A DNA stretch of 61,741 nt from Syntrophomonadaceae bacterium. GTDB taxonomy: Bacteria; Bacillota; Ch66; Ch109. Shown piece by piece: positions 5,647 to 48,156 of the stretch; within the stretch, counting starts at the first letter, position 1; each line of letters opens with the position of its first letter. The stretch spans positions 1 to 61,741 of the forward strand of contig JAAYQE010000140.1 in the NCBI GenBank assembly GCA_012519455.1, given 5' to 3'. The translations under genes and the position numbers were made by a program. The notes under the pieces were generated by a model that made no database searches, had not been told where the DNA came from, and worked only from the letters and a program-made list of their open reading frames with translations.

Positions 5647-5656
5647 GAGGGGACTA

Positions 5657-6427: not shown

Positions 6428-6449
6428 AGAGTAAAGGTGGCAGGTATTT

Positions 6450-6710
6450 TTGTTTTGGTTTAACTGGGTTTTAAATTCCCTAGTGTTTCTACTTGTTTTT
6501 AATTTTACGCCAATAATTAACTGGTATCATACCCGTACCTGGGAATGGCGTAATCCCTATTTCTCTCTGCTTTTACCCCTGGGTCTAGCCTTGGTTTTGA
6601 CCGTAGTTGATAGTCTCAGGCTTTATTTTGTTTACCAAGTACTTATTTTGGTAATTGCTGCCGGAGCATTGTACTGGCTGTTCGGATTTTTAAATAGGCC
6701 ACGGCGTTAA
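6450..6710 (+). CDS. Small hypothetical membrane protein (3 TM)
   Basis: ORF within the operon, RBS-like AAAGGTGG, hydrophobic. Confidence 0.65.
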   Translation: MFWFNWVLNSLVFLLVFNFTPIINWYHTRTWEWRNPYFSLLLPLGLALVLTVVDSLRLYFVYQVLILVIAAGALYWLFGFLNRPRR

Positions 6711-6758
6711 TAAAGTAAAAGTGGATACACCTTAGCTAGAGAAGGGGGTGAAAACCGG

Positions 6759-7802
6759 GTGATAAAGAAAAAATTAACCGAATTAGTTAAAGCTTCAGGA
6801 TGAGCGGCTAAAGTGGGTCCGGGGACCCTGGAAGGAATTTTAGAAAAGTTACCGGTTTTCGATTGTCCTCAGGTATTAGTTGGACTGAATCAACCCGATG
6901 ATGCCGGGGTTTATCAATTGAATGCCGAGACCGCTTTAATTCAGACCGTAGATTTCTTTACCCCAGTCGTAGATAATCCCTATCTTTTTGGCCAGATAGC
7001 TGCAACGAATGCTTTAAGTGATGTCTACGCTATGGGCGGTCAACCTTTGACGGCCCTAAATATCGTTTGTTTTCCGACCGATTGTCTGGACCTCGAGGTA
7101 CTAGCTCAGATCCTGGCCGGCGGGGCAGAAATAGTGCAAAGGGCCGGAGCGGTAATCCTGGGGGGACATACCGTAGAAGATGCCGAGCCCAAATATGGCT
7201 TGGCCGTGACCGGTATAGCTCATCCTGAACGGATTATTACTAACCAGGGAGCGCGGCCAGGAGACTTATTGGTATTAACTAAACCCCTAGGGACCGGAGT
7301 GATAATTACCGCGGTTAAAGGGGAAGTTCTAACCGAAGCAGAGATTAGCCCGGCTTTAGCATCGATGCTTACACTTAACCAAAGCGCCAGTGAGGCAATG
7401 CAAGCGTGGGGTGTACGCGGGGCTACGGATATAACCGGTTTTGGATTATTAGGACATGCTTTGGAAATGGCGCAGGCTAGTCGTTGTACGATAGAGCTGT
7501 GGATAGATAAAATCCCCTGGCTGCCTGGGGCTCGGGAGATGGCTGGTATGGGTTTAGTGCCGGCCGGGGCGTATGCTAATCAACACTACCTTAATGGCAA
7601 GTTGGAGTTTCTTGGGAGCCTCTCAGAAGCAGAGAAAGATTTATTGTTTGATCCGCAAACTTCCGGGGGTCTGCTCATCGCCATTGCGGAAGCTAAAGTA
7701 GAAGGTTTAGTTGACCACTTAAAGCTTAGAGGAGAAACCGCCTGGATTATTGGGAGGGTTTGTCAACCGGGTGATTATTCAATCCGCGTACATGGAGTTT
7801 AA
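6759..7802 (+). CDS. selD: Selenide, water dikinase (selenophosphate synthetase); selenoprotein with Sec at UGA 6801-6803
   Basis: GTG 6759 after RBS GAAGGGGGTG is in frame: MIKKKLTELVKASG-U-AAKVGPG. UGA sits at the catalytic Cys position (SGxAAK). Also QTVDFFTP, GGHT and DPQTSGGLL motifs. Confidence 0.95.
6815..6828 (+). promoter_or_regulatory. Bacterial SECIS hairpin for selD Sec codon
   Basis: GGGTC-CGGG-GACCC stem-loop with a G-rich apical loop, starting 12 nt after the UGA. Confidence 0.7.
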
Positions 7803-7910: not shown

Positions 7911-7967
7911 ATTAAGTTATAGGACAAAACTTTTGTAGCATAAGAATAAAAAAAAGGGGGGGTATAC

Positions 7968-8105
7968 GTGAAAGCGAAGAATAGAAAGACAATTAGGAAA
8001 AAACCTTTAAAAATAAACCTAGAAATTATTTATGCGGGAGGCCAGGGTTTGCAACTGGCATATCGTTTAGTGGCCAAGAAAGTATTAGCCTTGGAGAAAA
8101 AATAA
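7968..8105 (+). CDS. Small basic protein (45 aa), not in ORF track
   Basis: GTG after AAAAGGGGGGG RBS: MKAKNRKTIRKKPLKINLEIIYAGGQGLQLAYRLVAKKVLALEKK; followed by a terminator. Confidence 0.55.
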   Translation: MKAKNRKTIRKKPLKINLEIIYAGGQGLQLAYRLVAKKVLALEKK

Positions 8106-8156
8106 TTTAAGTTAAAAAGATAACCAGTCAGGAGAAAGCTATTTTTCCTAAAAAAA

Positions 8157-8198
8157 GAGTCCCTTGACCGGCAGATCATGGTCAGGGACTCAATTTTT
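8157..8198. terminator. Bidirectional terminator
   Basis: GAGTCCCTTGACC / GGTCAGGGACTC stem flanked by an A-run and a T-run. Confidence 0.8.
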
Positions 8199-8214
8199 TA
8201 AAAGATTATTTAAA

Positions 8215-31423: not shown

Positions 31424-32665
31424 TTACCGCTTATAGAGCCCCTGATGTAAAAGTTGAATTGGGTGCAGGACGGGATAATTCAAACCGCTTTCACGCAGTC
31501 CGTAGCTTAATTGCGTTATACAACTAGGACAACAGGTCGCTACGGCCTGGGCTTCGGTTTGTCGTATATTATTAATTTTTGCCTCTAATATTTTCATGGA
31601 TACCTCGTAGTGCGTTAAACCAAAAGTTCCAGAACCTCCACAGCAAGTATCTGCTCCCGCCATTTCTTTCAATTCTACCCCCGGGATACTCTTTAGGAGT
31701 TGACGGGGTTGATCTTTAATTTTCTGCGCTTTTACTAAATGGCAAGGGTCATGATAAGTAACCGTCAAAGGATGAGGCAGGGCTCGTATTTCCGAAGGTA
31801 TTCCCAAAACCTCCACGATAAAAACCGAAAGATCAAATACTTTAACCTTTAACCAATCCTTATAAAGATGACCTTTAAGGGTAGAAGTGCAAGAGGCGCA
31901 ATCACTAATTACCGCATCTACGCCTAACTTATGCAATATATTAACGTTATGCTGCACCAGTTCTTCAGCGATCTTTTTCTGTCCATTAGCCAGGTGAGGG
32001 ACCCCACAACATTTTAGATTTGGCGAAACCACTACTTCACACCCCAGATGATTGAGGACTTCTACGGTAGCTAGTGCCACCTTCGGTTGTAAGAGGTCCG
32101 TGCCACATCCAAGGAAGTAGGCTACCCGAGTTTTACGGGTACCTTTGGCTGGGGAAACGGTTTTTATTCGAGTGCGGGCTGAGGCACGGGGAATTTTACC
32201 CAGAATTTTTTCCGCTTGGGGTAAATCTCCGGGAAGGATACTGGTCATACCCAGGGCCCGGGCTATATTACGAAAGCCCAGGCTATCCGCGAGGCCAGCG
32301 GCGGCTACCGCTTTACGTAGCAATCTTGGATTCGTCCATAGTTTGCCAAAGATAAGGTCTTTACCGGCCGAGGGACGTTGCTCTCCAATATAGGCCCTGG
32401 CCGCAGCTACTAGTTCCGGAACCGGAATACCCGAGGGACAGGTGCTGGAACAGGATTCACACATCAGGCAGTCACTAGCTTTAGCCGCTACTTTTTCAGA
32501 AACTTCAAGTTCTCCGTCCCGTAACATTTGGACTAAAAATACCTGGCCACTAGGAGAGTAATTTTCGGTTTGGTAAACCTGGAATATAGGACAGACACTA
32601 CGACATTTACCACAACGAACGCATTTTTTAATTTGCTCTCGTACTACCGGTGTATCCTTAAACAC
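31424..32665 (-). CDS. GlcF-like Fe-S subunit (2x[4Fe-4S] + CCG domains)
   Basis: CVRCGKCRSVCP, CLMCESCSSTCP, CCG and YHDPCHL motifs. Confidence 0.9.
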   Translation of the reverse strand: MFKDTPVVREQIKKCVRCGKCRSVCPIFQVYQTENYSPSGQVFLVQMLRDGELEVSEKVAAKASDCLMCESCSSTCPSGIPVPELVAAARAYIGEQRPSAGKDLIFGKLWTNPRLLRKAVAAAGLADSLGFRNIARALGMTSILPGDLPQAEKILGKIPRASARTRIKTVSPAKGTRKTRVAYFLGCGTDLLQPKVALATVEVLNHLGCEVVVSPNLKCCGVPHLANGQKKIAEELVQHNVNILHKLGVDAVISDCASCTSTLKGHLYKDWLKVKVFDLSVFIVEVLGIPSEIRALPHPLTVTYHDPCHLVKAQKIKDQPRQLLKSIPGVELKEMAGADTCCGGSGTFGLTHYEVSMKILEAKINNIRQTEAQAVATCCPSCITQLSYGLRESGLNYPVLHPIQLLHQGLYKR

Positions 32666-32668
32666 TAA

Positions 32669-34108
32669 TTATTCCTCCTCTGGGCCAAAGACTTTGCCTG
32701 GATTCATGATTCCTTTCGGATCAAGGGTTTGTTTGATACTTCGCATAATCTTAACCGCAGCTCCGTGTTCTAATTCGGCATACATGGCCCTTACGGCCCC
32801 TACCCCATGCTCCCCGGTGGTGGTTCCACCTAATCTCACCGCTAAACGATGGATATCATCAACCAGACGCTGGGCTGCTTCTACTTCCTGTGGTTGTTCC
32901 GGATCAATCACTGGGGCTGTGTGTACGTTTCCATCACCAATATGCCCATAGTTTACAACCTTAATGTGGTGTTTTTTCCCTAAAGCGCGAATTTCTCGTA
33001 GGGTTTCGGCCACCTTGGAAAGCGGGACACTAATATCTTCGCCAGCAAAAACCCGACTCCCGTCTGGACGTACTCGAGCCGCGGCGGTAGCGACCACGCT
33101 ACGACCTTCCCAAAGGTCCGCCATCCGTTTCGGGTCTGTAGCCCACTCGACCTGGGTTGCCCGTTGAGAAGCAATCTCTTTTATTTTTAATCCTTCCCAT
33201 TCGACGCTAGCCGGATTGCCATCAACTTCAAAAAGCAGGATAGCTTCAGCATTAGGTAAGTTAATTTCTGCTCGGTACATATTAACGGCTTGAATCGCCG
33301 ATTGGTCCAGAATCTCAATTCCCGACGGAAGTATTCCTGCCTTATACACCTCCAATACCGAGGCCGGCGCATCATCCAGAGAAGGATAAACCGCCATTAC
33401 AATACCTCGTCCTTTAGGTTTAGGCCATACTCGTAATCTTATTTGCGTAATGACCCCTAGAATACCCTCAGATCCGACAAATAGTTTAGTTAGATTTAGG
33501 CCGGAAACACTTTTTACCGCTCGAGATTGCATACCGCCGGTGATAATTATTTCTCCGTTCGGTAATACCACTTCCAGTCCAAGAATATATTGTTCTGTAC
33601 AGCCGTATTTAACTGCGCGTAGGCCGCTAGCGTTATTGGCAACCATTCCTCCAATAGTACACATCAGAGAACTGCCTGGATCTGGAGGAAAAAACATACC
33701 ATTTTCAGCCAGGCGTTGGTTAAGTTTAGCATGAATCACGCCGGGACGTACAAAAACTTGCATGTTAGCCACATCAACTTCTTCGATAGTATCCCAGGGA
33801 GATAAGTCCATCACGATTCCCCCTTGAATAGCTACCGAGCCACAGGTTTCACCCGTACCAGCACCTCGGGGGGTAACTGGAATATTATGGGTATATGCTA
33901 GTTTCATTACCTCCGAAACTTCTTCCGTAGAGCGAGGCGTTACTACGACGTCTGGCATAAATCGATTTAAACGAGCATGAAAAGAGCTATCGTAAGAATA
34001 ATACATAAGATCTACTTTATCCGAAATAACTTTTTCTTGACCTAGTTTTTTCTCTAATTCTTGGATAAGGAGGGTACGATCCATAATTATACTCTGCACC
34101 TCTTTCAA
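32669..34108 (-). CDS. GlcD/D-lactate dehydrogenase-like FAD-linked oxidase
   Basis: PRGAGTG, IGGMVANNASG, GSEGILG, GHIGDGNVH, GEHGVG and MNPGK motifs. Confidence 0.92.
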   Translation of the reverse strand: MKEVQSIIMDRTLLIQELEKKLGQEKVISDKVDLMYYSYDSSFHARLNRFMPDVVVTPRSTEEVSEVMKLAYTHNIPVTPRGAGTGETCGSVAIQGGIVMDLSPWDTIEEVDVANMQVFVRPGVIHAKLNQRLAENGMFFPPDPGSSLMCTIGGMVANNASGLRAVKYGCTEQYILGLEVVLPNGEIIITGGMQSRAVKSVSGLNLTKLFVGSEGILGVITQIRLRVWPKPKGRGIVMAVYPSLDDAPASVLEVYKAGILPSGIEILDQSAIQAVNMYRAEINLPNAEAILLFEVDGNPASVEWEGLKIKEIASQRATQVEWATDPKRMADLWEGRSVVATAAARVRPDGSRVFAGEDISVPLSKVAETLREIRALGKKHHIKVVNYGHIGDGNVHTAPVIDPEQPQEVEAAQRLVDDIHRLAVRLGGTTTGEHGVGAVRAMYAELEHGAAVKIMRSIKQTLDPKGIMNPGKVFGPEEE

Positions 34109-34287
34109 TTTATTTAATTGATTCTAATATATATATTTAAATTATTTAATTACAAATTTAGGTATCCTTTTGGGAAGCTTGCTGATCCGTATTCGTAGTG
34201 GTAAAATATTGTTCTGGTGCTGATTGAACATATGCGGGTAGATGCGTATCTGATCACGATTATATCACACCCCGGGAGGCAAAGTAT

Positions 34288-35229
34288 ATGGAAATTAAGT
34301 TAGTAACCTCTCCAGAATTGAGGGCTGGGTTAAGAGATTTGCCGCAGGTAATTGCAGAAGCGAGAATTGCCTGGAATGAACCTATGAGCAGCTATACCTC
34401 TTTTCAGATTGGCGGACCAGTTGATGCTTTAGTTAGACCGGTTGACGAAAATGAATTACGTCGGGTACTAATGTACTGCCGAGAACGAGAATTGCCGGTT
34501 TTTATAATGGGTAAAGGGACGAATATTTTAGTAAGGGATAAAGGCATTCGTGGCGTAGTAATTAAGGTAGATCATCCCATGGATAGGCTGGAATTTTTGG
34601 AAGGGGGGCAGGTTAAGGCCGGAGCTGGCCTGACTTTAAAAGAGCTTTCACAAGCTGTTGCTGCCCGGGGATTGAAGGGGTTAGAATTTGCCATAGGGAT
34701 ACCTGGCTCACTGGGGGGAGCCGTGGTCATGAATGCGGGGGCCTATAATGGAGAAATGAAAGAGGTAATTACCCAGGTGCGGGTATTAGATTATCAAGGG
34801 CAAATTAGGAATATGTCGGCCGCGGAACTCGGCTTCGGATACCGTTACTCTATTCTACAAGCAATGGAGTTAGTGTTACTTGAAGCTACTTTACAGTTAA
34901 GCCCGGGGGACCCGAAAGAAATTTATGCGCGGATGGAGGACTATACCGTACGTAGGGAAGCCAGGCAACCCCTTAATCTGCCTAGTGCTGGCAGTGTATT
35001 TCGTCGGCCGGCCGGGCATTACGTGGGACCTATGATTGAAGAACTCGGTTTAAAGGGCTTTCGGGTGAATGATGCGCAAGTTTCAGAGATGCATGCCGGA
35101 TTTATCGTTAATCGTGGTCAGGCCACTGCAGCAGATATTTTAGCATTAATCCGTCTCATTCAAGAAAGGGTTCGGGAAAGATTCGGGGTGGAATTAATAC
35201 CGGAGATTAAAATTATTGGTGAGGCATAG
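34288..35229 (+). CDS. murB: UDP-N-acetylenolpyruvoylglucosamine reductase
   Basis: GIPGSLGGAVVMNAGAY, QP..LPSAGSVF, HAGFIVN. Confidence 0.96.
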   Translation: MEIKLVTSPELRAGLRDLPQVIAEARIAWNEPMSSYTSFQIGGPVDALVRPVDENELRRVLMYCRERELPVFIMGKGTNILVRDKGIRGVVIKVDHPMDRLEFLEGGQVKAGAGLTLKELSQAVAARGLKGLEFAIGIPGSLGGAVVMNAGAYNGEMKEVITQVRVLDYQGQIRNMSAAELGFGYRYSILQAMELVLLEATLQLSPGDPKEIYARMEDYTVRREARQPLNLPSAGSVFRRPAGHYVGPMIEELGLKGFRVNDAQVSEMHAGFIVNRGQATAADILALIRLIQERVRERFGVELIPEIKIIGEA

Positions 35230-35285
35230 GGGAAAAAATTAATCTATATTTGCTTGAGGGCCAGACCACACTGCTTGTTTGCTAA

Positions 35286-35456
35286 TTATTCGTCTAATAT
35301 CCATCCCGGAAAAAATAGAAGGAACCAGAAAACAAGCAGAATTATAACGATTAAATTAATCATTTTATCTTCTCCCGGTTTTGCTTTTTCCCGCTCTCGC
35401 TTTTTTAGATAGGCTAAACGCTGTAACCGTAGTTGATCGTAACAACAACCTAGCAC
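35286..35456 (-). CDS. Small single-TM protein (56 aa), not in ORF track
   Basis: RBS AAAAAGGGGGGG, then GTG: MLGCCYDQLRLQRLAYLKKREREKAKPGEDKMINLIVIILLVFWFLLFFPGWILDE; upstream CATATAAT. Confidence 0.5.
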   Translation of the reverse strand: MLGCCYDQLRLQRLAYLKKREREKAKPGEDKMINLIVIILLVFWFLLFFPGWILDE

Positions 35457-35679
35457 CGGAATCCCCCCCTTTTTGATTGACCAATAAATCTATCAATGCA
35501 TTATATGGTTATAGAGGGTATGGGGTTCCATTTAGCTGGGTTCTAATCATCTTTCGCTTCCATTAAGATTACAGTAAAAAGTAGCCACCACATTAGACAG
35601 TATTTTGGCCGAAAATAACAAGTAATTTTTTTTCACTGCAACACAATTGTAACATTTGCGCAAAAATAGATATTGCCCG

Positions 35680-35711
35680 AAAAAGCAAAAACCGCGCTAA
35701 CCTGCGCGGTT
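35680..35711 (-). terminator. Terminator after tRNA-Ala
   Basis: AACCGCGC / GCGCGGTT stem followed by a T-rich tail on the minus strand. Confidence 0.7.
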
Positions 35712-35725
35712 ACTTACTTTGTCTA

Positions 35726-35801
35726 TGGTGGAGATAGGGGGATTCGAACCCCCGGCCTTCTGAATGCGAACCAGACGCTCTCCCAACTGAGCTATACCCC
35801 C
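35726..35801 (-). tRNA. tRNA-Ala (CGC)
   Basis: 76 nt, GGGGGTATAGCTCAG...TCTGG-TTCGCAT-TCAGA...GTTCGAAT...CCACCA; G3:U70 Ala identity pair. Confidence 0.96.
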
Positions 35802-36060
35802 ATATACGTTGTAAATTATAGCATTTTGTTTTAAGATGTCAATAGTAGAACGGGATAGAATTTTATAGCCGGCTGTTTTTGGTCTTTAGCATCGATAGGG
35901 GAGAAAAGTGTTTGAAAACAGATGTAAACTAGGGATAAACCATAACCAGATCCATTGTCAGTGGGTAGATAATATACTATGATTAAGAAAAGATTAAATT
36001 GCATGATTTGTTTAATTTATTCAGACTTTTAGATAACTTTGGGTTATAGAGGGGGATGGA

Positions 36061-38205
36061 ATGAAAAAGAAGCTTGGTGAAATATTGTCGTCTCGGAATA
36101 TTGTTTTACATTCCAACCAAACCATAAATGAGGGGCGAGAAATACTAATTGCCAATCAACTAATCGCCGCTCCGGTTGTAGATGACCAGAAAGAAATCGT
36201 AGGGGTTGTAACCGAGGGAGAGCTTATTCAAGCCAAAAATGTCGATCCGGATGAGCCGATCACGTTATTGATGAATAAGGATTGGAGTGCGGTTTCTATT
36301 AACGTTAATCTGGAAGTAGCCTTAAAAGCTGGGGGCTTTTGGATTGTAGCGGTTGATGAGCATAAAACACCTATTGGTGTTCTCTCTAAGTATGAATTAG
36401 TAGACGCGGTGATCGAGGTTTTTGATACCACTTTAAAACGTCTGCATACGGTTATGGACTCCGCTCATAATGGGATTATCGCCTTAGATAAGGATGGGCT
36501 TATTACCCATTATAATTCAGCCGCGGAGGTTATGTTTGGCTTTCCCCAGGATAAAGCGATTGGAAGGCATATTAAAGAGGTTGACCCGGAAAGTACCTTA
36601 ATGGACGTGGTGCAGACCGGGCAGGCCCAAATGGTACAAAAAAGAAAGCTGCCCCAAGCGATAATTCTTACTAACCGGCGTCCGATCTTGCGCAATGGTG
36701 AAATCATTGGGGTAGTGGCAGTATTCCAGGACTTATCCGAAGTAGAAGCTGCGCATAATGAATTACGCTCAGTTCAAGCCTTAAATCATGAGTTGGAAAG
36801 TATCCTAAAGTTTTCTCACGATGGACTGGCCATCTGTGATGGACAAGGAAGGTTTTTAAGAGTAAGTCCTAGTTTTAGTAAATTATTGGGTATACCTGAT
36901 GAAGAATTGACTGGTCGGGCTGTTTCCTCTTTATCCGAAGAAGGTCAATTAATCCTTTCCGTTATTCAGGCGGTGATAAATCGTCGGGCTCCGGTTTCCA
37001 TGACCCAAAATACTTCTAGTGGACAGCAAATTTTAGCTACCAGTGTTCCGGTTTTTGATGAACTGGGTCAATTAGTACGCGTAGTAACCAATTTACGCGA
37101 TATGACCGAACTGAATGATTTGCGTGAACAGGTACAACAAACTAGTGAATTAAGCCGGCGTTACCTACACGAATTAGAAGAATGGCGGGCCCGTTTTGTC
37201 GCTACTTCAGAAGTAATTGCTTCTAGTGAGACTATGCAACGCGCAGTGGAGTTAGCTTTACATGTGGCCAAAGTCGACTCTACGGTATTAATCACCGGAG
37301 AATCCGGGGTAGGCAAACAGGTTATTGCCAAAATGATTCACCGGGTAAGTCCCCGACGGGATGGACCATTTATTGAAATAAACTGTGGGGCTATTCCCGA
37401 GACTTTATTGGAGTCAGAATTATTTGGATACGAGCGAGGAGCTTTTACCGGAGCGGCCCGGGAAGGCAGAACGGGAATTTTTGAATTAGCCAATAACGGC
37501 ACCTTGTTACTAGATGAAATCGGGGAAATTCCCCTTAATTTACAAGTAAAACTGCTCCGAGCTATTCAAGAACAGGAAATATACCGGGTAGGAGGAAGTC
37601 AAGCGATTAAGCTAAATGTTCGTATCATCGCCGCTACCAATAAAAACCTTTGGCAGATGGTACAGAATCGCCAATTTCGTGAAGATCTATACTATCGCCT
37701 CAATGTAGTTCCCATGGAAATCCCACCCCTGCGTAAACGTAGAGATGATATCATTCCGCTTACGAATCATTTTTTAAAATTATGCAATGATAAGTACGGC
37801 TTTAACCGGCATTTAGAGCCGGAAGTATATCAGGTTTTTGAAAGATACAATTGGCCAGGCAATGCACGGGAATTACAGAATTTAGTGGAAAGGTTGGTAG
37901 TTACTTGTAACGCCGATATTATCACCGAAAAACATTTGCCTGCTTCCATGTCGAAAAAGAACTTGGGAAGTCCACAGCCGGTAAAAGTTTTCGGGTTAAC
38001 CACGCTTAAAGAAGCGGGAGAAATTGTCGAAAAGGAACTGGTGACCCGAGCGTTGCGGGCCGGGAAAAGTACTCGCCGCGCCGCTGAATTATTAGGCGTA
38101 ACGCATTCCACGGTTATTCGTAAATTGAAGCAGTATAACATCACTCCTGGAACTCAATCATACCAGAATGGAACAGAAGTATACCAAGCCGTTAAAGACG
38201 ACTAA
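36061..38205 (+). CDS. Sigma54-dependent transcriptional activator (CBS pair-PAS-PAS-AAA+-HTH)
   Basis: GESGVGK, ESELFGY, GAFTGA, LLLDEIGE, REDLYYRLNV, WPGNARELQN; TyrR-like C-terminal HTH; CBS-like and PAS-like N-terminal segments. Confidence 0.93.
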   Translation: MKKKLGEILSSRNIVLHSNQTINEGREILIANQLIAAPVVDDQKEIVGVVTEGELIQAKNVDPDEPITLLMNKDWSAVSINVNLEVALKAGGFWIVAVDEHKTPIGVLSKYELVDAVIEVFDTTLKRLHTVMDSAHNGIIALDKDGLITHYNSAAEVMFGFPQDKAIGRHIKEVDPESTLMDVVQTGQAQMVQKRKLPQAIILTNRRPILRNGEIIGVVAVFQDLSEVEAAHNELRSVQALNHELESILKFSHDGLAICDGQGRFLRVSPSFSKLLGIPDEELTGRAVSSLSEEGQLILSVIQAVINRRAPVSMTQNTSSGQQILATSVPVFDELGQLVRVVTNLRDMTELNDLREQVQQTSELSRRYLHELEEWRARFVATSEVIASSETMQRAVELALHVAKVDSTVLITGESGVGKQVIAKMIHRVSPRRDGPFIEINCGAIPETLLESELFGYERGAFTGAAREGRTGIFELANNGTLLLDEIGEIPLNLQVKLLRAIQEQEIYRVGGSQAIKLNVRIIAATNKNLWQMVQNRQFREDLYYRLNVVPMEIPPLRKRRDDIIPLTNHFLKLCNDKYGFNRHLEPEVYQVFERYNWPGNARELQNLVERLVVTCNADIITEKHLPASMSKKNLGSPQPVKVFGLTTLKEAGEIVEKELVTRALRAGKSTRRAAELLGVTHSTVIRKLKQYNITPGTQSYQNGTEVYQAVKDD
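38148..38186. promoter_or_regulatory. Putative enhancer (UAS) pair for promoter 1
   Basis: TGGAAC-N6-ATACCA at 38148 and 38169 (21 bp apart), inside the activator's 3' end. Confidence 0.6.
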
Positions 38206-38300
38206 TTCATCTAAACCCTTGGTATTATTGAACAATTTTAATCAGAATGCATATTTATTGGAATATTTATGTTCCAGGTGAGAACGTGAATATTTGAACA

Positions 38301-38340
38301 AAAATCTCTTTCCCTGTTTTTAGGGAGAGATTTTTTTATT
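38301..38340 (+). terminator. Terminator of the activator gene
   Basis: AAAATCTCTTTCCCT / AGGGAGAGATTTT stem plus T-run. Confidence 0.75.
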
Positions 38341-38482
38341 TTTAGCCTGGTCTTAAGGGCCTAGAATTAACTTATTAATGCGGCTAAAGCTTAATTTTAA
38401 AGGGTTTAGCGCTTTTTATGGGTCGTTATTTTATTTTATCATCATCCTTGCTTAGCTTAAAAGAAGATTTTTTACTGAATTT

Positions 38483-38498
38483 TGGCAAGGATCTTGCA
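38483..38498 (+). promoter_or_regulatory. Sigma54 -24/-12 promoter 1
   Basis: TGGCAAGGATCTTGCA: GG-N10-GC, near consensus TGGCAC-N5-TTGC. Confidence 0.8.
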
Positions 38499-38574
38499 TA
38501 TAAGATAGGTAAAGTTATGATCTATAATATTATGGAACTTATATGATGTTTAATAATAAAGGGGGTAGGGGACC

Positions 38575-38823
38575 GTGCCTATAAAAACTCTTTTTTGGAT
38601 TTTCGTTGGTTTTTACGTGACAGTAAAAATATGCTATTTTGTTGGGGTATATCTAATTACTAAAGCTATTGAACGTAAAGCCTTAGCCGAAAAGAAGAAA
38701 CGATTAGAACATAATCGTCTAGTAGAGTTAGAAGGAATTGTGGAAATGTATGAAAAAAGAGAAAAAGCCTTTAGAAAGGATAAAGAAATCTACGGCGCGC
38801 GCCATGGTAAATTTATCGCATAA
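38575..38823 (+). CDS. Small membrane protein A (82 aa; TM + charged helix), unknown function
   Basis: RBS AAAGGGGG; 45% identical (37/82, gapless, by hand) to the 39239-39490 product. Confidence 0.85.
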   Translation: MPIKTLFWIFVGFYVTVKICYFVGVYLITKAIERKALAEKKKRLEHNRLVELEGIVEMYEKREKAFRKDKEIYGARHGKFIA

Positions 38824-38851
38824 AAGACAACGGAATGATATTAAACCAAGC

Positions 38852-38970
38852 TGGTTTATGAACAAACCGGGTGGTACATTTATGTACCGGTGGCAAAAAT
38901 GCTTAGTTATCAAGGGTTACAGAGATTAACCTAGTTTTACAATGTTCTTTTGTGGAACGGATTTGTACCA
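38852..38970. promoter_or_regulatory. Putative enhancer sites for promoter 2
   Basis: TGGTTT-N6-AAACCG (38852), TGGTAC-N6-GTACCG (38872), TGGAAC-N6-GTACCA (38953). Confidence 0.6.
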
Positions 38971-39147
38971 CTAAAGATTGTTTTAGCGAGAACAAGCCTA
39001 CTAGTCTACTTTAGTTTGGGGCTTCTTTGTTCGCAGCTTAAGGTTGCAAAAAAAGGCTTAAACCTTGATTTAGAGCGGTTTTTCTTCCGTTCTCTATAAG
39101 TATACCCTCTCTAACTTCCGGACGATGACGAGGTAAAGCAACAAACA

Positions 39148-39163
39148 TGGCATGTATCTTGCT
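39148..39163 (+). promoter_or_regulatory. Sigma54 -24/-12 promoter 2
   Basis: TGGCATGTATCTTGCT: GG-N10-GC. Confidence 0.82.
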
Positions 39164-39238
39164 TGTAATTATAGTTGGAAGCATACGAAGACGATGCGAA
39201 GACAATTCATAAGTTTAGATAGAAGGAGGTTGAGGGAT

Positions 39239-39490
39239 ATGTTATTTTCGATCAGTGCGTTCATGGTCTTTATAGGTTTTTACGTAATAGCTAAAGTATG
39301 TTTTTTTGTCGGAGTATACGTTATTACTAAATCTATCGAAAAACGTGCTTTGCGGGAAAAACGTAAACGCTTAGAAAGCTATCGACTTAATGAAATTGAA
39401 GTGTTACTGCAGCAAAGAAATCGATGCCAAGAAAATGCCAAGAAAGACAAAGAGCTTTTCGGCATCAGACGAAATCGTTTTGTGAGCTAG
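39239..39490 (+). CDS. Small membrane protein B (83 aa), paralogue of protein A
   Basis: ATG 39239 follows AGAAGGAGG. The ORF-track start 39152 overlaps the sigma54 promoter and extends beyond the paralogue alignment. Confidence 0.85.
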   Translation: MLFSISAFMVFIGFYVIAKVCFFVGVYVITKSIEKRALREKRKRLESYRLNEIEVLLQQRNRCQENAKKDKELFGIRRNRFVS

Positions 39491-39521
39491 GTAATATTTT
39501 AAACATATAATATGGACTTAT

Positions 39522-39557
39522 AAACAGAGGATCACCTGATTCTCTGTTTGTTTTTTT
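39522..39557 (+). terminator. Terminator after protein B
   Basis: AAACAGAG / CTCTGTTT stem plus T-run. Confidence 0.75.
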
Positions 39558-39722
39558 AAGATATTTATTAAGCAGAAGGAGGAATATTTTACCCTTTATA
39601 GAAGTAAAAGCTTTAGCTAAAAATATAAAAATAGGGTGAAACGTAAACGTAAGGGGGTGCAAATAAGTAGATTCCCTCAAGGTAGCTTTGTGATTATTGA
39701 TTATCAGAGAATTACATAATTC

Positions 39723-40436
39723 ATGGTACTGGAGGTATTAATTTTGGGAGAGCAAGTTATTTTAAAATATCACGGTCATGGGTGTCTTCAATTAACTAAA
39801 GGTGCGGCTTCTTTAATTGTAGACCCGTTTTTAGCGGGAAATAATCCTTTAGCCCAAACTAAAGCAGCGGATATCAAGTGTCAATACGTTTTAGTTACCC
39901 ATTGCCATTTCGATCACATGATTGATGCGCCGGAAATCGTCGATAACAACCAAGCAATGTTGATCGGAACCCCTGAGGTTGCTAATGAAGTGGGTAAGTC
40001 ATGTGCTGCTGGAGCGTTAATCGATACTCCCGGGATTGGCGGGAAAAAGGATTATGATTTTGGCTTCATTCGAGTAACGCCGGCCTTTCATGGCTCCGGG
40101 GTCGCTGGGGGACATGCCTGTGGTTTTATCGTTAATTTTTATGGCCAAGTAGTCTATTTTGCCGGAGATACTAGTTTGTTTGGGGATATGAAACTGCTAA
40201 GCCAGTTGGAGAAAATAGATTATGCAGTCTTACCTATTGGCGGCTATTTTACTATGGGGCCGGAGGACGCGGCCTTGGCCGTTGAATTCCTTAAGCCCCG
40301 AGCTGTAATTCCGATGCATTATAACACCTGGCCTCCTATCGAACAAGATCCAGTAGTCTTCAAAAAACTAGTCGAGGAAAAAACCGGTATCCCGGTTATG
40401 GTAGTGGAACCCAATACAGAAATAGCTTTAAGCTAA
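39723..40436 (+). CDS. Metallo-beta-lactamase-fold hydrolase (YtkL/UPF0173-like)
   Basis: HGHGC, THCHFDH, YFAGDT and IPMHYNTW motifs. Confidence 0.9.
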   Translation: MVLEVLILGEQVILKYHGHGCLQLTKGAASLIVDPFLAGNNPLAQTKAADIKCQYVLVTHCHFDHMIDAPEIVDNNQAMLIGTPEVANEVGKSCAAGALIDTPGIGGKKDYDFGFIRVTPAFHGSGVAGGHACGFIVNFYGQVVYFAGDTSLFGDMKLLSQLEKIDYAVLPIGGYFTMGPEDAALAVEFLKPRAVIPMHYNTWPPIEQDPVVFKKLVEEKTGIPVMVVEPNTEIALS

Positions 40437-40484
40437 TAAAGAATTGAGGGGCTGCAGGTGTTTTGCCTTTTACCTGTGGCCTTT

Positions 40485-41276
40485 TTACCAATTTCGGCTA
40501 CTGCCGCCACCGCCTCCGGAACCGCCACCCCCGGAAAAACCGCCGCCACCCCTACCGCCACCGCCACCACGAAAGAGCATGGGTAAAAGCATAGCAAAAA
40601 TAAATCCATTAAAAAAGCGGCGATCTACGATATAAAGCAGGAGTAAACCAATAATAATTAATAAGAGTTGTCCCGTAGAAAGCTCCTTAGCGGCCCCACT
40701 CCCTTCGGGTCGGTACGTTGTTGGCGTTTGTGTATTCAGCGCCACTTGGTATTCTTTAGCTACTTCTTGGGCTAAAACCAGAAATCCATTTAAGATCCCC
40801 TGGTCAAAGTTACCTTCTTTAAAAAAAGGGATCATGTATTCATCCTGGATGCGGCCGGTTTTGCCATCCGGGAGGGCCCCCTCCAATCCATACCCCACCT
40901 CAATTCGGGAGCTGCGTTCTTCGGGGATGACTAGCATGACTAACCCGTTATTCAGTTGTTTATCCCCGACCCCCCATTCTCGGAGGATGCCTAATCCTAA
41001 GTCTTCTAGGGTTAATTCTCGTGCGTCTTTTAAAGTAACCACGACGATTTGGGCTTTGGTTTTAGTATTTAGTTCCTGATTAATGGCCAGTATCTGGTTC
41101 TCTACTTCAGGGCTAATTACCTGAGCCTCATCTAAAACATAAAAAGAACTCGTAGGTCGAGGCAGGGTTGGGGTGGCTATACTCGAACTATAAGTCGTCG
41201 TTAGTAAACAACCAACTACTACTGAAGTAATTAATAAAACAACGGCTATAAGGGGGTACCTGAACCTTTTATTCAT
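40485..41276 (-). CDS. TPM-domain protein (YgcG-like) with Gly-rich tail
   Basis: WGVGDKQLNNG, RIEVGYGLEGALPDG; GGGFSGGGGSGGGG tail. Confidence 0.92.
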   Translation of the reverse strand: MNKRFRYPLIAVVLLITSVVVGCLLTTTYSSSIATPTLPRPTSSFYVLDEAQVISPEVENQILAINQELNTKTKAQIVVVTLKDARELTLEDLGLGILREWGVGDKQLNNGLVMLVIPEERSSRIEVGYGLEGALPDGKTGRIQDEYMIPFFKEGNFDQGILNGFLVLAQEVAKEYQVALNTQTPTTYRPEGSGAAKELSTGQLLLIIIGLLLLYIVDRRFFNGFIFAMLLPMLFRGGGGGRGGGGFSGGGGSGGGGGSSRNW

Positions 41277-41325
41277 ACGGTCCTCCCGGTTAGGTTTTGG
41301 GTAAAAGCCAAAAACAAGCTAGAAA

Positions 41326-41886
41326 CTATTTAACAAAATCAACCTGGGGTACTGCTTTGGTGCCTTCTTCAGCTCTAAAGTATTCACGCGCATCAAAGCC
41401 AAACATACTAGCATAAATATTATTCGGAAACCTTTTGATTTTAGTATTATAGTATCGGACCGAATCGTTATAATCTTTACGGGCCGTAGCCAGACGATTT
41501 TCTGTTCCGGCTAGTTCATCTTGTAATTGCCGGAAATTAGCATCAGCTTTGAGGTCCGGGTAGTTTTCGACGATGGCTAGGAGACGGGCCAGCGCGGAAC
41601 TCATTTCCCGATCCGCGGCTGCAGCTTCGTCCACGGTCTGGGCCCCACCGATTTTAGCTCGGGCCTCAGCCAATTGGGTAAAAATCCCTTGTTCATGGGC
41701 TGCATAACCTTTTACGGTGTTTACCAGGTTAGGAATTAAATCAGCTCGTCGCTGCAGTTGGTTTTCTACTTGACCCCAATAACTATCTACACTTTCATTT
41801 AGGGTTACCATCCCGTTATAGCCGGAGATTAAAAGGATAACCAATACAGCCACAATCCCTAGAGTAATCCATAATCCCTTGGGCAT
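41326..41886 (-). CDS. lemA: LemA family protein
   Basis: QLQRRADLIPNLV, ENYPDLKAD, ENRLATARKDYN. Confidence 0.95.
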   Translation of the reverse strand: MPKGLWITLGIVAVLVILLISGYNGMVTLNESVDSYWGQVENQLQRRADLIPNLVNTVKGYAAHEQGIFTQLAEARAKIGGAQTVDEAAAADREMSSALARLLAIVENYPDLKADANFRQLQDELAGTENRLATARKDYNDSVRYYNTKIKRFPNNIYASMFGFDAREYFRAEEGTKAVPQVDFVK

Positions 41887-42087
41887 GTTTCCAACCTCCT
41901 GAAAAATACTTTTTTCTTTAGTCTAAGGAAATTTATTAGAATTGTCTACACCGAATTGTCTATACAGTTCTTTTCGGAAAAGGAAAATTTAACGCTATTG
42001 GTTGTTTCATAAACTGAAAAAGTTAAGCAGTAGAGTACTTTTTTTCCAGCTACAGCGTTATTATAAGGGAAAGGGGGAAGCAATTAA

Positions 42088-44139
42088 ATGAAAATTAAAG
42101 AATTTGGAAAAAGAAACTTTACTTTAATTTCCTTAAGTACCTTAACCTTACTTTTGGTGCTGCTTAGTTTTAGTACCGGCAGTGCGTTCAGTGACTTACG
42201 GATTATCGTTAATGGTCAGAAGGTCTCATCTGAAGAAACGCCTCTAGATAATTTATTGGATTTGCCTTCAATTGGTTCGTATGAAAACCTGAAGGTGCTT
42301 CTTCAAGAGGCAGAACCATCCTTTGGTTATCATTATCGTGAGCAACTGGGTGCATTAAGGGCAGGGGCCGCGGTGCAAAGTGCGGATGCAGTACCTGAAG
42401 CGAGAAAAGAGATGGCTAATGTAGCCAATGAAAATAGTTTTTCCGATACTAATGTGCAGGTAGAAGGGGTAGATGAAGCGGATATTGTTAAAACCGATGG
42501 CCAATATATTTATCAAGCTAATGAGCGGGAAATCGTGGTCGTCAAAGCTTACCCTCCAGAGGAAATGAAAGTACATAAAACGATTCAATGGTCGGATCCC
42601 TTTAATCCCCGAGAACTTTATCTAGATGAACAGTACCTGGTGGTTATTGGAACCGTTGCGGCTGAATCGAATTTTTACTATCCAGATCGTCCCGAAGTAA
42701 CGCCCAAACGGTGGGGACCTGAAATTTATCCGCCGCCAGTTTATTATCCACCAGTTGTTAAGGCTAAAGTATATAATATTAAAGATAAGGAGAATTTCAC
42801 GTTACAAAGAGAAATAGAACTAGAAGGCGATTATGTTTCCTCCCGTAAAATTGGCTCCGCGCTTTATCTGGTCTCTGATCGGCGCTTAGATTGGGTGCGT
42901 ATCCAACAACAACCGGAGAAGCCCTTTTATCGGGATTCAGCCGCAGCGGCGGAGGGGGTTTCGGTAGATTATGCGGATATTAAGTATTTTCCCGGTTGCG
43001 TACAGCCTAGTTACTTAATGGTAGCTGGTTTGGATCTAGCTCAGCCACAAGCTGAAATAAAAGTTTCCACCTATTTAGGTTCTGCGGAAAATGTTTATGT
43101 CTCACCGGAGAACCTGTACGTAGCAGCAACGAAGAACCAGGTGGTTCCGTTGAACAGTGCCCCCATTCATTACGCTCCAGAAACGCAGGTGTTTAAGTTT
43201 GCGCTCCAGAAGGGGGCCGTCCAATTTACGGGAAAAACCGCGGTGCCGGGTCGGATCTTAAATCAGTTTTCTATGGATGAGGATCAGGGGTATTTTCGTA
43301 TAGCTACTACTAGCGGTGATATCTGGCGTAACGACGCGTATACTTCGCAAAACAACGTTTATGTCCTAGATAATAAACTTAATTTGGTGGGCAGGCTTGA
43401 AAATATTGCCCCCGGGGAAAAAATCTACGCTACCCGGTTTATAGGTAACCGAATCTATATGGTTACTTTCAAAACTACAGATCCCTTTTTCGTAATTGAC
43501 CTAAGTGATCCTAAGCAACCAGCGGTTTTAGGGGCCTTAAAGATACCTGGTTATAGTGACTACCTGCACCCTTACGATGAAAACCATATTATTGGTTTCG
43601 GTAAAGAGGCTGTAGAGGTGATCGAAAAAGATCCGCAGGGTAGAGAAGTAGGCCGTTCAGCTTATTACCAGGGAATGAAAATAGCTCTCTTTGACGTCCG
43701 TGATGTTCATAATCCGGTACAGTTGTTTACGGAAACGATTGGAGATCGGGGTACGGACTCCGAACTTTTACGTAATCACAAAGCTTTATTGTTTGATCGC
43801 GAGAAAAACTTACTGGCATTTCCGGTAACCGTCATGGAGGTAAAAAATCAGCCGACCAATAATGAGCGCAGGGCCGCGACTCAGTTCGGCAGCTTTACTT
43901 TTCAGGGTGCTTACCTGTATCATTTAGATTTAACTCAAGGGTTCACGTTGCAAACCCGCATTACCCATCTATCACCGGAGGATTACCTAAAAGCGGGAAG
44001 TCGTTGGTACCGTAGTGATAAAAATGTCGAAAGAATATTGTATATAAATGACGCTATTTATACCCTGTCCCCGAAATTTATTCAGGCGCACGACTTAAGG
44101 GATTTTCATCTACGAGGAAATCTCGAAGTCCCTTACTAA
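42088..44139 (+). CDS. Secreted beta-propeller domain protein
   Basis: TNVQVEGVDEADIVKTDG, LNQFSMDE, GEKIYATRF, DPFFVIDL, LKIPGYSDYLHP; signal peptide. Confidence 0.88.
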   Translation: MKIKEFGKRNFTLISLSTLTLLLVLLSFSTGSAFSDLRIIVNGQKVSSEETPLDNLLDLPSIGSYENLKVLLQEAEPSFGYHYREQLGALRAGAAVQSADAVPEARKEMANVANENSFSDTNVQVEGVDEADIVKTDGQYIYQANEREIVVVKAYPPEEMKVHKTIQWSDPFNPRELYLDEQYLVVIGTVAAESNFYYPDRPEVTPKRWGPEIYPPPVYYPPVVKAKVYNIKDKENFTLQREIELEGDYVSSRKIGSALYLVSDRRLDWVRIQQQPEKPFYRDSAAAAEGVSVDYADIKYFPGCVQPSYLMVAGLDLAQPQAEIKVSTYLGSAENVYVSPENLYVAATKNQVVPLNSAPIHYAPETQVFKFALQKGAVQFTGKTAVPGRILNQFSMDEDQGYFRIATTSGDIWRNDAYTSQNNVYVLDNKLNLVGRLENIAPGEKIYATRFIGNRIYMVTFKTTDPFFVIDLSDPKQPAVLGALKIPGYSDYLHPYDENHIIGFGKEAVEVIEKDPQGREVGRSAYYQGMKIALFDVRDVHNPVQLFTETIGDRGTDSELLRNHKALLFDREKNLLAFPVTVMEVKNQPTNNERRAATQFGSFTFQGAYLYHLDLTQGFTLQTRITHLSPEDYLKAGSRWYRSDKNVERILYINDAIYTLSPKFIQAHDLRDFHLRGNLEVPY

Positions 44140-44944: not shown

Positions 44945-46348
44945 TTGTTATTAAGCAGAACGGGGGTGGGGTGGATGACGGGTATTTCATTATTACCAAA
45001 AACTTACCAGTATGAAAAATCTTTAATCCTGCTGGTGATAAAAAATTCTTCAGCGGGCTATCAATTAGCTAAAAAGATGGCTAAAGATAACTTCGAGGTT
45101 TTAAGTACCGAGGATTACGCTCAGGCCCAGTCCTTTTATCTAAACGATTCCCCGAATCTCGTCCTAATAAGCATTAAAAAACCGGAAAAGGACACCTTTA
45201 CTTTTTGCGCTTCTTTAAGAAAACTAACGGATGGGTGGACCACCCCGATCATACTTTTAACTGCCGCCGTAAATGCGGTTACCCTGGAACAGGCTTTCGC
45301 AGCTGGCCTTTCGGCTATTTTACCTGAAACGATAAACTGGAAAGTGTTGAGGCAGCGGGTACAGCAATATATACAATTCCGCACCTCATTTTTACGTTTA
45401 CGAGAAAGCGAAGCTTGTTATCGAAGTCTTATTCAAATTTTACCTAGTGCTATTGCGCTTACGGATTTAGACGGTAATATTATCATGGCCAATCAAAAAA
45501 CAGCGGCGTTAATTGGTTACGATCAGGTTGACCAATTAATCGGGAAGAATGCTTTCGATTTTATTGTCTCCACGGATCATCATCGGGTTAATTATAACTT
45601 CATGCAAACCTTGCTGTACGGTAAAAGAGAAAAAAGCGAATATAGCTTTTTACATAGAAATAGATCTCTAATACCTATTGAGGTAAATGCATCGCCAGTT
45701 TTAGATGAAAAGGGTTATCCCTATGCTTTTATCGTAGTGATTGACGATCTCACGGAGCGTAAATTAACGGAGGAGAAGTTAAGGTACCTTAGTTTGCATG
45801 ACCCATTGACCGGTCTATACAATCGGGCTTTTTTTGAAGAAGAAATGCTCGGTCAGCAAAATAGTTATCAGAATCCGGTCTGTGTGGTAGTTTGTGATAT
45901 TAACGGCCAAAAACTAGTGAATGATACCTTAGGGCATGCGGCCGGGGATACTTTAATCGTAGAAGTGGCTCGATTACTCCAAGGTTGTTTTCGAGAAAGC
46001 GATATCGTGGCCCGCATTGGGGGCGATGAATTTGGGATTATCTGTCCCGGTACGGATCAATTAACTGCCGAAAAAATCAGTCAACGGATAAATGACGCGG
46101 TTAATCAATATAACGCCGAACACCCGGGACTACCCATAAGCATTTCCACTGGTTTAGCTGTGGGTAAAGTATTTAACTTTGAGGATATGCAAGCCTTATT
46201 TATGGAAGCGGATTGTAATATGTACAAGGAAAAATTAAACGTAAAGCATACCAATGGTGCTTTATGGCTGAATAAATTGTTTGTGTCTTTAGCGGCCCGA
46301 GGGTTAATCACCACCGAACAAAAAGAAATTATAAAAAATATGCTATAA
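44945..46348 (+). CDS. Diguanylate cyclase (pseudo-REC - PAS - GGDEF)
   Basis: HDPLTGLYNR, RESD I-site, RIGGDEF active site; PAS segment; REC-like N-terminus. Start codon uncertain. Confidence 0.9.
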   Translation: MLLSRTGVGWMTGISLLPKTYQYEKSLILLVIKNSSAGYQLAKKMAKDNFEVLSTEDYAQAQSFYLNDSPNLVLISIKKPEKDTFTFCASLRKLTDGWTTPIILLTAAVNAVTLEQAFAAGLSAILPETINWKVLRQRVQQYIQFRTSFLRLRESEACYRSLIQILPSAIALTDLDGNIIMANQKTAALIGYDQVDQLIGKNAFDFIVSTDHHRVNYNFMQTLLYGKREKSEYSFLHRNRSLIPIEVNASPVLDEKGYPYAFIVVIDDLTERKLTEEKLRYLSLHDPLTGLYNRAFFEEEMLGQQNSYQNPVCVVVCDINGQKLVNDTLGHAAGDTLIVEVARLLQGCFRESDIVARIGGDEFGIICPGTDQLTAEKISQRINDAVNQYNAEHPGLPISISTGLAVGKVFNFEDMQALFMEADCNMYKEKLNVKHTNGALWLNKLFVSLAARGLITTEQKEIIKNML

Positions 46349-46935: not shown

Positions 46936-48156
46936 TTGCTGGTAATCACCAAGAACCGTATACCCATCAAGAGTTGGGCGAAAGATTTGGAAAAAGAGGC
47001 CTTAGAACAGGCGAACAACTTAGCAAACTTACCTTTTGCTTTTAAACATATCGCCTTAATGCCGGATTGCCATGTGGGGTACGGTATGCCTATCGGTGGA
47101 GTAATGGCCACGGAGGGGGTTATCGTTCCGAACGCCGTAGGGGTTGATATTGGTTGCGGGGTGGCTTTTTTTCAAACGAATATTCCGGCGGACCTGTTGC
47201 GAAACACAAATACTGGTTCTGGTAATTTACTGCAAAGCCTGATTGGGGATATCAGTAGAAATATTCCATCTGGTTTTAAACATCATAAAAAGCCCCAGCC
47301 GTGTAAAGCCCTGGATAGCCTCCATATTGATGACCATTTTCGTCGGGCTAAGGCCCTGTTGAAGGAAATTGATCGAGGTTATTATCAAGTTGGTACCCTG
47401 GGGGGAGGTAACCATTTTATCGAAATCCAAGCCAACGAAGCGGATTTAATTGGGGTAATGATTCATTCCGGCTCCCGTAATTTTGGTTATAAAATTTGTC
47501 AACACTTTAACCAAGTTGCCCGTAAACGGAATAAGCAGGAGAACTCCCCGGTACCCAGTAACTGGCAATTAGCTTATCTGCCGGTAGATTCCCCAGAGGG
47601 TCGGGCTTATATCCAGTGGATGAACTTAGCTTTAGACTTTGCGCGAGAAAACCGGGAAGCTATGATTAGTAAAGTAAAAGAGATCGTCTGGGACCGGGTA
47701 ATGCATTATACCGGGTTTAAAGAAATAGAGATTGCGATGGAGGTCAATGCGCATCACAATTACGCCGCCCTGGAGAAACATTTTAAACGCAAGGTCTGGG
47801 TACACCGTAAAGGAGCGATCCGCGCCGGCGCGGGGGAATTAGGCATTGTTCCCGGTTCCATGGGGGCAGATAGCTATCTGGTACGGGGGCTAGGTAATGA
47901 AGACTCCTTTATGTCTTGCAGCCATGGCGCCGGGAGAGTAATGGGTCGCAAACAAGCTAAACGGGAACTTAATCCGCATCAGGTCGCGACTCTACTTAAG
48001 GAGCGCGGGGTTGTTTTTAGTGGGAAAATATCCGATATTATTGATGAAGCGCCCCAAGCTTATAAGGATATTCAAGCGGTTATGGCGGCCCAGGCTGATT
48101 TAGTGGAACCGGTGGTACGGTTAAGAGGCCTGGCGGTAGTAAAAGCGGCGGACTAA
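46936..48156 (+). CDS. rtcB: RNA 3'-phosphate/5'-OH ligase RtcB
   Basis: MPDCHVG, VGVDIGCG, GTLGGGNHF, HSGSR, HNY, HRKGA, SHGAGR, DEAPQAYK. Confidence 0.95.
   Translation: MLVITKNRIPIKSWAKDLEKEALEQANNLANLPFAFKHIALMPDCHVGYGMPIGGVMATEGVIVPNAVGVDIGCGVAFFQTNIPADLLRNTNTGSGNLLQSLIGDISRNIPSGFKHHKKPQPCKALDSLHIDDHFRRAKALLKEIDRGYYQVGTLGGGNHFIEIQANEADLIGVMIHSGSRNFGYKICQHFNQVARKRNKQENSPVPSNWQLAYLPVDSPEGRAYIQWMNLALDFARENREAMISKVKEIVWDRVMHYTGFKEIEIAMEVNAHHNYAALEKHFKRKVWVHRKGAIRAGAGELGIVPGSMGADSYLVRGLGNEDSFMSCSHGAGRVMGRKQAKRELNPHQVATLLKERGVVFSGKISDIIDEAPQAYKDIQAVMAAQADLVEPVVRLRGLAVVKAAD

Follow-up and report, generated by a model that had tools for sequence, protein, structure and literature searches.

A sigma-54 activator and two paralogous small membrane protein genes form a candidate regulatory module in a Syntrophomonadaceae bacterium

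The window analysed here is a stretch of 61,741 nucleotides from a Syntrophomonadaceae bacterium (contig JAAYQE010000140.1 of assembly GCA_012519455.1), to which the positions given below refer. It carries the gene for a sigma-54 activator, a bacterial enhancer-binding protein (bEBP), followed by two paralogous genes, A and B, for small membrane proteins. The regulatory architecture, with a local bEBP and two sigma-54 promoters (PA and PB) with palindromes, each before a small paralogous gene, appears well supported (Table 1). Our analysis makes it probable that the activator, the palindromes, the promoters (including PC of a third paralog, C, found in relatives) and the small-protein output constitute a self-contained sigma-54 module, whose products would play an effector role similar to that in the Psp response of Enterobacteria. 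The initial annotation of this DNA had described an activator of CBS-PAS-PAS-AAA+-HTH architecture with intact GAFTGA, its terminator, and two units composed of a -24/-12 promoter, a ribosome-binding site and an open reading frame of 82 or 83 codons. Pfam searches and the translation bore out the domain order and the motif, and the terminator, the promoters, the ribosome-binding sites and both reading frames were found in place, the two products being 47% identical (E 6e-29) and having a single predicted membrane helix each.

A scan of both strands of the window for TGGCA-N6-TTGCW returned two matches only, PA and PB, against a shuffle expectation of 0.12, with one of 100 shuffles giving two. 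At 38483 and at 39148 the GG and GC dinucleotides lie exactly 10 nt apart (TGGCAC-N5-TTGCW). Wherever the region upstream of an A, B or C gene is intact in a relative, it contains a -24/-12 element 67-118 nt before the gene start. When the sigma-54 regions of 16 promoters of A, B and C genes from 10 sources were aligned, the invariant positions were GGC, TTGC, one G of the ribosome-binding site and the start codon, the flanks having diverged to 40% mean column identity; as a phylogenetic footprint, the alignment points cleanly to sigma-54 promoters. At 39147-39175 a weak sigma-70-like match runs across PB; in total, the window has as many promoter-like sites as expected from shuffles.

Palindromes upstream of both promoters had been proposed in the initial annotation as the loose motif TGG-N12-CCR, which is not enriched over the whole window (58 matches vs 49 expected); the claim stood in a refined form, as clusters of TGGWAY-N6-RTWCC. 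Exact sites of this kind number five in the window (38148, 38169, 38259, 38872 and 38953), with none elsewhere in it, and the palindromic form YGG-N12-CCR occurs six times in 38100-39240, where the remainder of the window would predict 0.4 (Poisson P ~4e-6). The sites at 38148 and 38169 lie inside the 3' end of the activator coding sequence, a location not remarked on in the initial annotation. These two upstream activating sequences, UAS1 and UAS2, come directly after the HTH-coding segment, UAS3 follows about 90 bp further on, and PA lies 216 bp past UAS3; PB has two or three sites 187-288 bp upstream. Equivalent palindromes were detected in every relative, 173-369 bp upstream of PA or PC and 153-416 bp upstream of PB.

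Every activator orthologue carries at least one palindrome 3' of its HTH-coding part, and the activator stop codon falls after the palindrome in the window and in the locus designated L010, inside it in L007, and before it in L009 and L011. Since the peptide tail of the activator is not conserved and the stop codon shifts, selection would act on the DNA motif and not on the protein tail. The GGAA and GTTCC of UAS3 are invariant in nine loci. The conserved element that follows UAS3 contains a GAACGT placed 21 nt after the UAS3 half-site, and it is possibly a degenerate fourth activator site.

The activator has the AAA+ sigma-54 interaction domain, the GAFTGA motif and the C-terminal HTH that define membership in the bEBP family. 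The Walker A and B motifs of its AAA+ domain are readable in translation (GESGVGK and LLLDEIGE), and the sigma-54-contacting loop is intact, GAFTGA lying within ERGAFTGAAREG (ERGAFTGA in translation). At the C-terminus, HTH_8 (PF02954) also matches in Pfam, with E 7.7e-6. The top NCBIfam match is PrdR (NF041552), at 512 bits vs a cutoff of 795, and its best-scoring stretch (model positions 129-577 vs residues 238-693) comprises the second PAS, AAA+ and HTH domains, leaving the N-terminal CBS domain and the first PAS uncovered. Because of the score below cutoff and the partial coverage, the protein is regarded as a PrdR-like bEBP and not as a PrdR orthologue; the NCBIfam PspF models scored well under their own cutoffs. 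A search with its sensor region (residues 1-370) returned distant proteins only and was uninformative on A and B: one of them (P0015) is without CBS and precedes a corrinoid methyltransferase operon, and the gene of another (P0016) runs off the contig end.

No sigma-54 promoter was found upstream of the activator gene in the TGGCA-N6-TTGCW scan of the window, and a sigma-70-like candidate, known as a consensus match only, lies there (Table 1). The stem of the activator terminator is longer in relatives, with six compensatory pairs over nine loci. Just upstream of the activator gene is a tRNA-Ala gene (anticodon CGC; 35726-35801, minus strand), beside which a perfect 8-bp GC-rich hairpin (35690-35711) obtained a terminator score on both strands. 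The Rfam scan of 35200-39800 detected this tRNA alone and no riboswitch or small RNA in leaders or spacers.

The small genes are real and under strong purifying selection. In close pairs the ratio of nonsynonymous to synonymous substitutions (dN/dS) is 0.035-0.09; in distant pairs the synonymous sites are saturated and dN is 0.17-0.40. Strong ribosome-binding sites precede all copies (GGAGG/GGGGG in A and B). Gene B contains at 39424-39445 a perfect tandem duplication, 11 nt in two copies (ATGCCAAGAAA), where the cytoplasmic helix is least conserved.

The AlphaFold 2 model of protein A is a single continuous helix over residues 2-79, with a mean confidence (pLDDT) of 77.6. The hydropathy of the small proteins peaks at 1.9-2.3 around residues 8-28 (Kyte-Doolittle, 19-residue window; 1.86 in A), and basic residues number 0-1 in the N-terminal flank and 5-7 among the first 15 residues past the membrane segment (seven K/R in A), from which the positive-inside rule predicts an N-terminus outside and a C-terminus inside. 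Over 17 family members F7 and K18, a mid-membrane lysine, are invariant, and Y14, F22, Y26, T29 and K40 nearly invariant; the spacing of the conserved aromatics by i, i+3/4 would place them on a conserved face for helix packing. In the tail, the hydrophobic residues follow a heptad-like pattern (44, 49, 52, 55/56, 59, 66, 73 and 80), which would fit a coiled-coil oligomer, and the C-terminal motif KDKE-x-(Y/F)G is conserved.

Searches of A and B against Pfam (strict and with E up to 10), NCBIfam, PHROG, PADLOC and PDB profiles returned nothing significant. Gene B gave a sub-threshold match to the second transmembrane helix and C-terminal helix of MscL (E 1.5e-4; 21.8 bits vs a cutoff of 146) and gene A one to the membrane region of ATP synthase subunit b (E 0.077); together with a weak TrpC match, these lie far under the cutoffs and were treated as compositional.

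Relatives of A were few. Five turned up among 5.8 billion proteins in a word-indexed search, and HMMER, run exhaustively with a profile over 1.84 billion cluster representatives, placed the family in nine representative clusters. Scans of genome and metagenome contigs, the latter with a six-sequence alignment, added 12 loci from Syntrophomonadaceae and Bacillota metagenome-assembled genomes and from anaerobic-digester metagenomes; 12-16 kb of each related genome was covered. The triad of activator, A and B is present, whole or in part, on 13 independent contigs. It has the same order in L001, L006, L007, L009, L010, L011 and L018, and is partial in L008, L016, L017 and L020, where contig ends cut it. 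Activator orthologues 66-77% identical adjoin the A and B genes in L001, L007-L011, L018 and L020, and L016 has a partial match of 80% identity. Because the flanking genes differ among the window, L001 and L002, the triad is regarded as a conserved unit. The initial annotation had made its proposal depend on the conservation of the motifs and of the gene pair in relatives, and both are conserved. The module appears confined to a narrow group of Syntrophomonadaceae-like anaerobes.

The third paralog, C, was found on two contigs. In L012 (6001-6249), which belongs to the same assembly as L010, it is unlinked and without an adjacent activator, and is flanked by a SpoIIE-like phosphatase gene and hypE; it has its own sigma-54 promoter and palindrome, TGGCACGTTTTTTGCT and TGGAACATTTTTGTACCA lying upstream. 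In L019 (1825-2082) C is convergent with hypE (hydrogenase maturation), as in L012; a clear palindrome was seen at one of the two contigs. Upstream of the C promoter region of L019, four or five tandem 11-nt units (GGCAAAACTTC) occupy 1450-1500.

Some loci are disrupted. In L002 what looks like a real insertion of an IS21-family element (istA and istB; 29-2217 and 2400-2512) lies directly upstream of A, where it replaces the A promoter region and removes the activator from the contig, the B promoter being intact. On the 570-kb contig of L006 the activator is frameshifted (5402-7560, split into 438 and 262 amino acids) and gene A (7961-8210) carries a 1-nt insertion near codon 55; both genes are intact in the near-identical L007, and the frameshifts may be sequencing (long-read) error or recent decay. 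The interruption of gene A in L011 was rejected as decay, the N-run inside it being a scaffold gap.

In the mechanism proposed here, the activator would be a cytoplasmic one-component protein made from its own sigma-70-type promoter. It would bind YGG(W)AY-N6-RT(W)CCR, which occurs about 150-420 bp before each target promoter as a 21-bp-phased tandem pair with an additional site. A signal acting at the sensor domains would cause its assembly into the active ATPase, and DNA looping would then allow sigma-54 RNA polymerase to be opened at PA, at PB and, where the third paralog exists, at the unlinked PC. As a protein with CBS and PAS domains and no membrane segment, the activator presumably responds to an intracellular signal; the energy or metabolite sensor suggested in the initial annotation would be a reading of domain identity. 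With high confidence we infer that the palindromes are bound by the neighbouring bEBP, which would thereby activate sigma-54 transcription of A and B and, in trans, of C. The whole visible regulon would comprise 80-residue bitopic proteins with a very short outside N-terminus, an aromatic-rich membrane helix and a charged cytoplasmic helix of about 50 residues, which would most likely oligomerise in the membrane, with each other or with themselves. By functional analogy to PspB and PspG, they could be effectors of membrane stress or energy state, or modulators of a membrane complex, an assignment made with low confidence.

Several observations weigh against the module as proposed. The proposed connection from the activator to PA and PB is read from the sequence, and the palindromes are unusually distant from the promoters, with a terminator intervening in the case of PA. 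The stretch between A and B holds two modest hairpins but nothing that resembles a terminator, so that B may be read from PA too. No rpoN gene was detected among the 18 window proteins scanned, which represent part of the window. On the sensor side, the second CBS repeat (residues ~90-120) is marginal (E 0.063), and the likely CBS pair, or Bateman module, includes this below-threshold repeat. The Psp response, the closest system-level analogue, would provide a functional analogy only: neither PspA nor PspC is present, no PspA-like open reading frame was found in 33000-43000, and PspB (PF06667) and PspG (PF09583) were absent even among the weak matches of the 17 family members. Finally, the regulon was viewed in short stretches of the related genomes, and further members, e.g., a metabolic operon, may lie elsewhere.

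This last point leads to the alternative that A and B are a side output of the activator, whose true regulon would be a PrdR-like metabolic operon elsewhere, the small proteins serving as accessory subunits or chaperones of its membrane enzyme or transporter. The short view of related genomes favours it, as do the PrdR model as the top NCBIfam match, the convergence of C with hypE on two different contigs, and the reconstructed sigma-54 regulons of Clostridiales, which are overwhelmingly metabolic (PMC6615313). However, in the one assembly that includes L010 and L012 all three detected target promoters drive small-protein paralogs, the 61.7-kb window holds no further sigma-54 site, and the neighbours vary among the window, L001 and L002, whereas the triad is constant. 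The palindrome here is TGG-N12-CCA and differs from the TGT-N10-12-ACA sites of the PrdR group (PMC6615313). On this evidence we consider a metabolic regulon unlikely.

The small proteins might also be holin-like or type I toxin-like peptides, made conditionally, that would permeabilise or depolarise the membrane and act in dormancy or in lysis at energy collapse. Sigma-54 promoters have very low basal activity, and such tight promoters could keep toxic genes silent; small size, a single hydrophobic helix with a mid-membrane lysine, the weak sub-threshold MscL match of gene B, and the weak antisense sigma-70-like promoters that the window has immediately 3' of the A and B stop codons point in the same direction. 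However, these antisense promoters are present in 6 of the 16 copies only, are all weak and differ in position, and the cytoplasmic helix with its KDKE-x-(Y/F)G motif is under purifying selection, which is atypical of simple pore-formers. Furthermore, there was no PHROG holin or PADLOC match and no antitoxin-like partner, and the chromosomal neighbourhood is of a housekeeping kind. As the antisense promoters are not conserved and promoter-like counts equal the shuffle expectation, the type I toxin-antitoxin form of the idea was dropped, and permeabilising peptides in general appear quite improbable.

A bolder version of the proposed module would have the activator sense energy or redox state through CBS (adenylate) and PAS, with the entire regulon consisting of new bitopic peptides that throttle an ion-translocating complex. 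In this version the mid-membrane lysine and the subunit-b-like helix might dock on the c-ring carboxylate of ATP synthase, on Rnf or on a membrane hydrogenase. If true, it would provide syntrophs living at the thermodynamic limit with a brake or clutch that works on membrane energetics through transcription; as a joint claim, it is speculative and has a low probability.

The last alternative, that the promoter and palindrome matches are due to chance or non-functional and the small reading frames constitutive or silent, could draw on the one shuffle in 100 that reached two promoter matches and on the weak sigma-70-like match over PB, but appears largely refuted by conservation and is very improbable, given -24/-12 dinucleotides and spacing invariant in 16 diverged promoters, conserved palindrome positions, purifying selection on the reading frames and conserved ribosome-binding sites.

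The coordinates of the features of the proposed module are collected in Table 1.

Table 1. Features of the activator gene, the small genes and their control elements in the window; residue numbers refer to the activator protein
Feature	Position	Strand	Description
Sigma-70-like promoter candidate of activator gene	35955-35983	+	TTGTCA-17-TATGAT; 10/12 consensus positions; consensus match only
bEBP (sigma-54 activator) gene	36061-38205	+	714 amino acids; CBS, PAS, PAS, AAA+ with GAFTGA, HTH_50 (Pfam)
CBS domain	residues 6-58		Pfam E 7.2e-10
First PAS domain	residues 127-224		Pfam E 2.1e-20 (E given for both PAS stretches)
Second PAS domain (PAS_4 model)	residues 252-351		E 3.3e-21 (for both PAS stretches)
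Sigma54_activat (PF00158)	residues 386-552		E 4.8e-71
AAA_lid_14	residues 558-636		E 1.2e-23
HTH_50 (PF18024)	residues 648-694		E 3e-13
Tandem sites UAS1 and UAS2	38148-38186		TGGAACTCAATCATACCA, then TGGAACAGAAGTATACCA; 21-bp period; in 3' tail of activator coding sequence
UAS3 palindrome	38259-38276		TGGAATATTTATGTTCCA; between activator stop codon and terminator
Conserved 16-nt element TG-N-GAACGT-N-A-NN-ATT	38279-38294		between UAS3 and activator terminator; invariant in 9 loci
Intrinsic terminator of activator gene	38300-38341 (hairpin and T-run 38307-38330)	+	between upstream sites and PA
Sigma-54 promoter PA	38483-38498	+	TGGCAAGGATCTTGCA; 92 nt before gene A start
Small gene A	38575-38823	+	82 amino acids, GTG start; bitopic membrane protein, predicted single long helix
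PB upstream sites	38852-38970		TGGTTTATGAACAAACCG (38852), TGGTACATTTATGTACCG (38872), TGGAACGGATTTGTACCA (38953)
Sigma-54 promoter PB	39148-39163	+	TGGCATGTATCTTGCT; 91 nt before gene B start
Small gene B	39239-39490	+	83 amino acids, ATG start; paralog of A
Intrinsic terminator closing the unit after B	39520-39551	+	14-pair stem, then T-run

Downstream of A and B the window contains a metallo-beta-lactamase (MBL)-fold hydrolase gene (39723-40436) and no prd (proline reductase) operon. Convergent with the hydrolase gene is a pair of genes for LemA and a TPM-domain protein (40485-41886, minus strand), the latter with a long Gly-rich C-terminal tail (GGGGGRGGGGFSGGGGSGGGGGSS). A few genes downstream of B, a large secreted beta-propeller protein is encoded (42088-44139, plus strand; PF09826, E 1e-168), and in L002 a gene with Cu_amine_oxidN1 and Beta_propel domains (3795-4790) follows B directly; this probably reflects shared ancestry and not a functional link. 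Further along are a diguanylate cyclase with a response-regulator receiver, PAS and GGDEF (44945-46348, plus strand) and an RtcB RNA ligase gene (46936-48156, plus strand) without an adjacent RtcR-type sigma-54 activator. On the other side, at 31424-34108 (minus strand) and upstream of murB, lie genes for a FAD-linked oxidase and an Fe-S/CCG-domain subunit, similar to glycolate or D-lactate dehydrogenase; these neighbours are present in L006 too.

Small membrane proteins as targets of a sensor-activator are unusual, as the sigma-54 regulons of Clostridia/Firmicutes are nearly all catabolic (PMC6615313). The description of this DNA as a candidate new system is fair with regard to the output, a protein family without annotation and of very narrow occurrence; the regulation itself follows textbook sigma-54 logic. 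The distribution, with nine representative clusters among 1.84 billion proteins, is very narrow, which limits the importance of the module. With a length of about 3.5 kb and defined sites, it is compact and directly testable in a heterologous reporter. In syntrophic fatty-acid oxidisers, a group that is hard to approach genetically, it may provide an entry to the biology of small membrane proteins and to energy-stress signalling.

Among known regulators, PrdR (NCBIfam NF041552), which activates the proline reductase genes of Clostridioides difficile together with sigma-54, is similar in being a one-component cytoplasmic bEBP of Clostridia. However, its targets are prdABDEF, in contrast to the small membrane proteins of the module described here, and its group is associated with the different palindrome mentioned above.

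On the side of the products, small bitopic regulators of membrane complexes include AcrZ, MgtS, KdpF and CydX, which resemble A and B in size and topology but have no significant sequence similarity to them. Subunit b of ATP synthase likewise has one membrane helix that continues as a long charged helix, again with no significant sequence similarity. None of these proteins is known to be the only product controlled by a dedicated sigma-54 activator.

At the level of the whole system, the module recalls the proteobacterial Psp response, with a different sensor and unrelated effectors. PspB is bitopic too: its N-terminus lies outside, and its cytoplasmic part is helical. The Psp regulon of Enterobacteria consists of PspF and the sigma-54 promoters of pspABCDE and the unlinked pspG (PMC3068692). 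By every sequence criterion tested, the module falls outside Psp. PspF lacks a sensor domain and is regulated through the binding of PspA, whereas the activator described here has CBS and two PAS domains, and the hosts are Bacillota and not Proteobacteria. The two systems nevertheless share a dedicated bEBP beside its targets, several sigma-54 promoters with upstream sites, outputs that include proteins of about 75-80 amino acids, and an unlinked monocistronic gene for a small membrane protein, pspG in the one and paralog C in the other.

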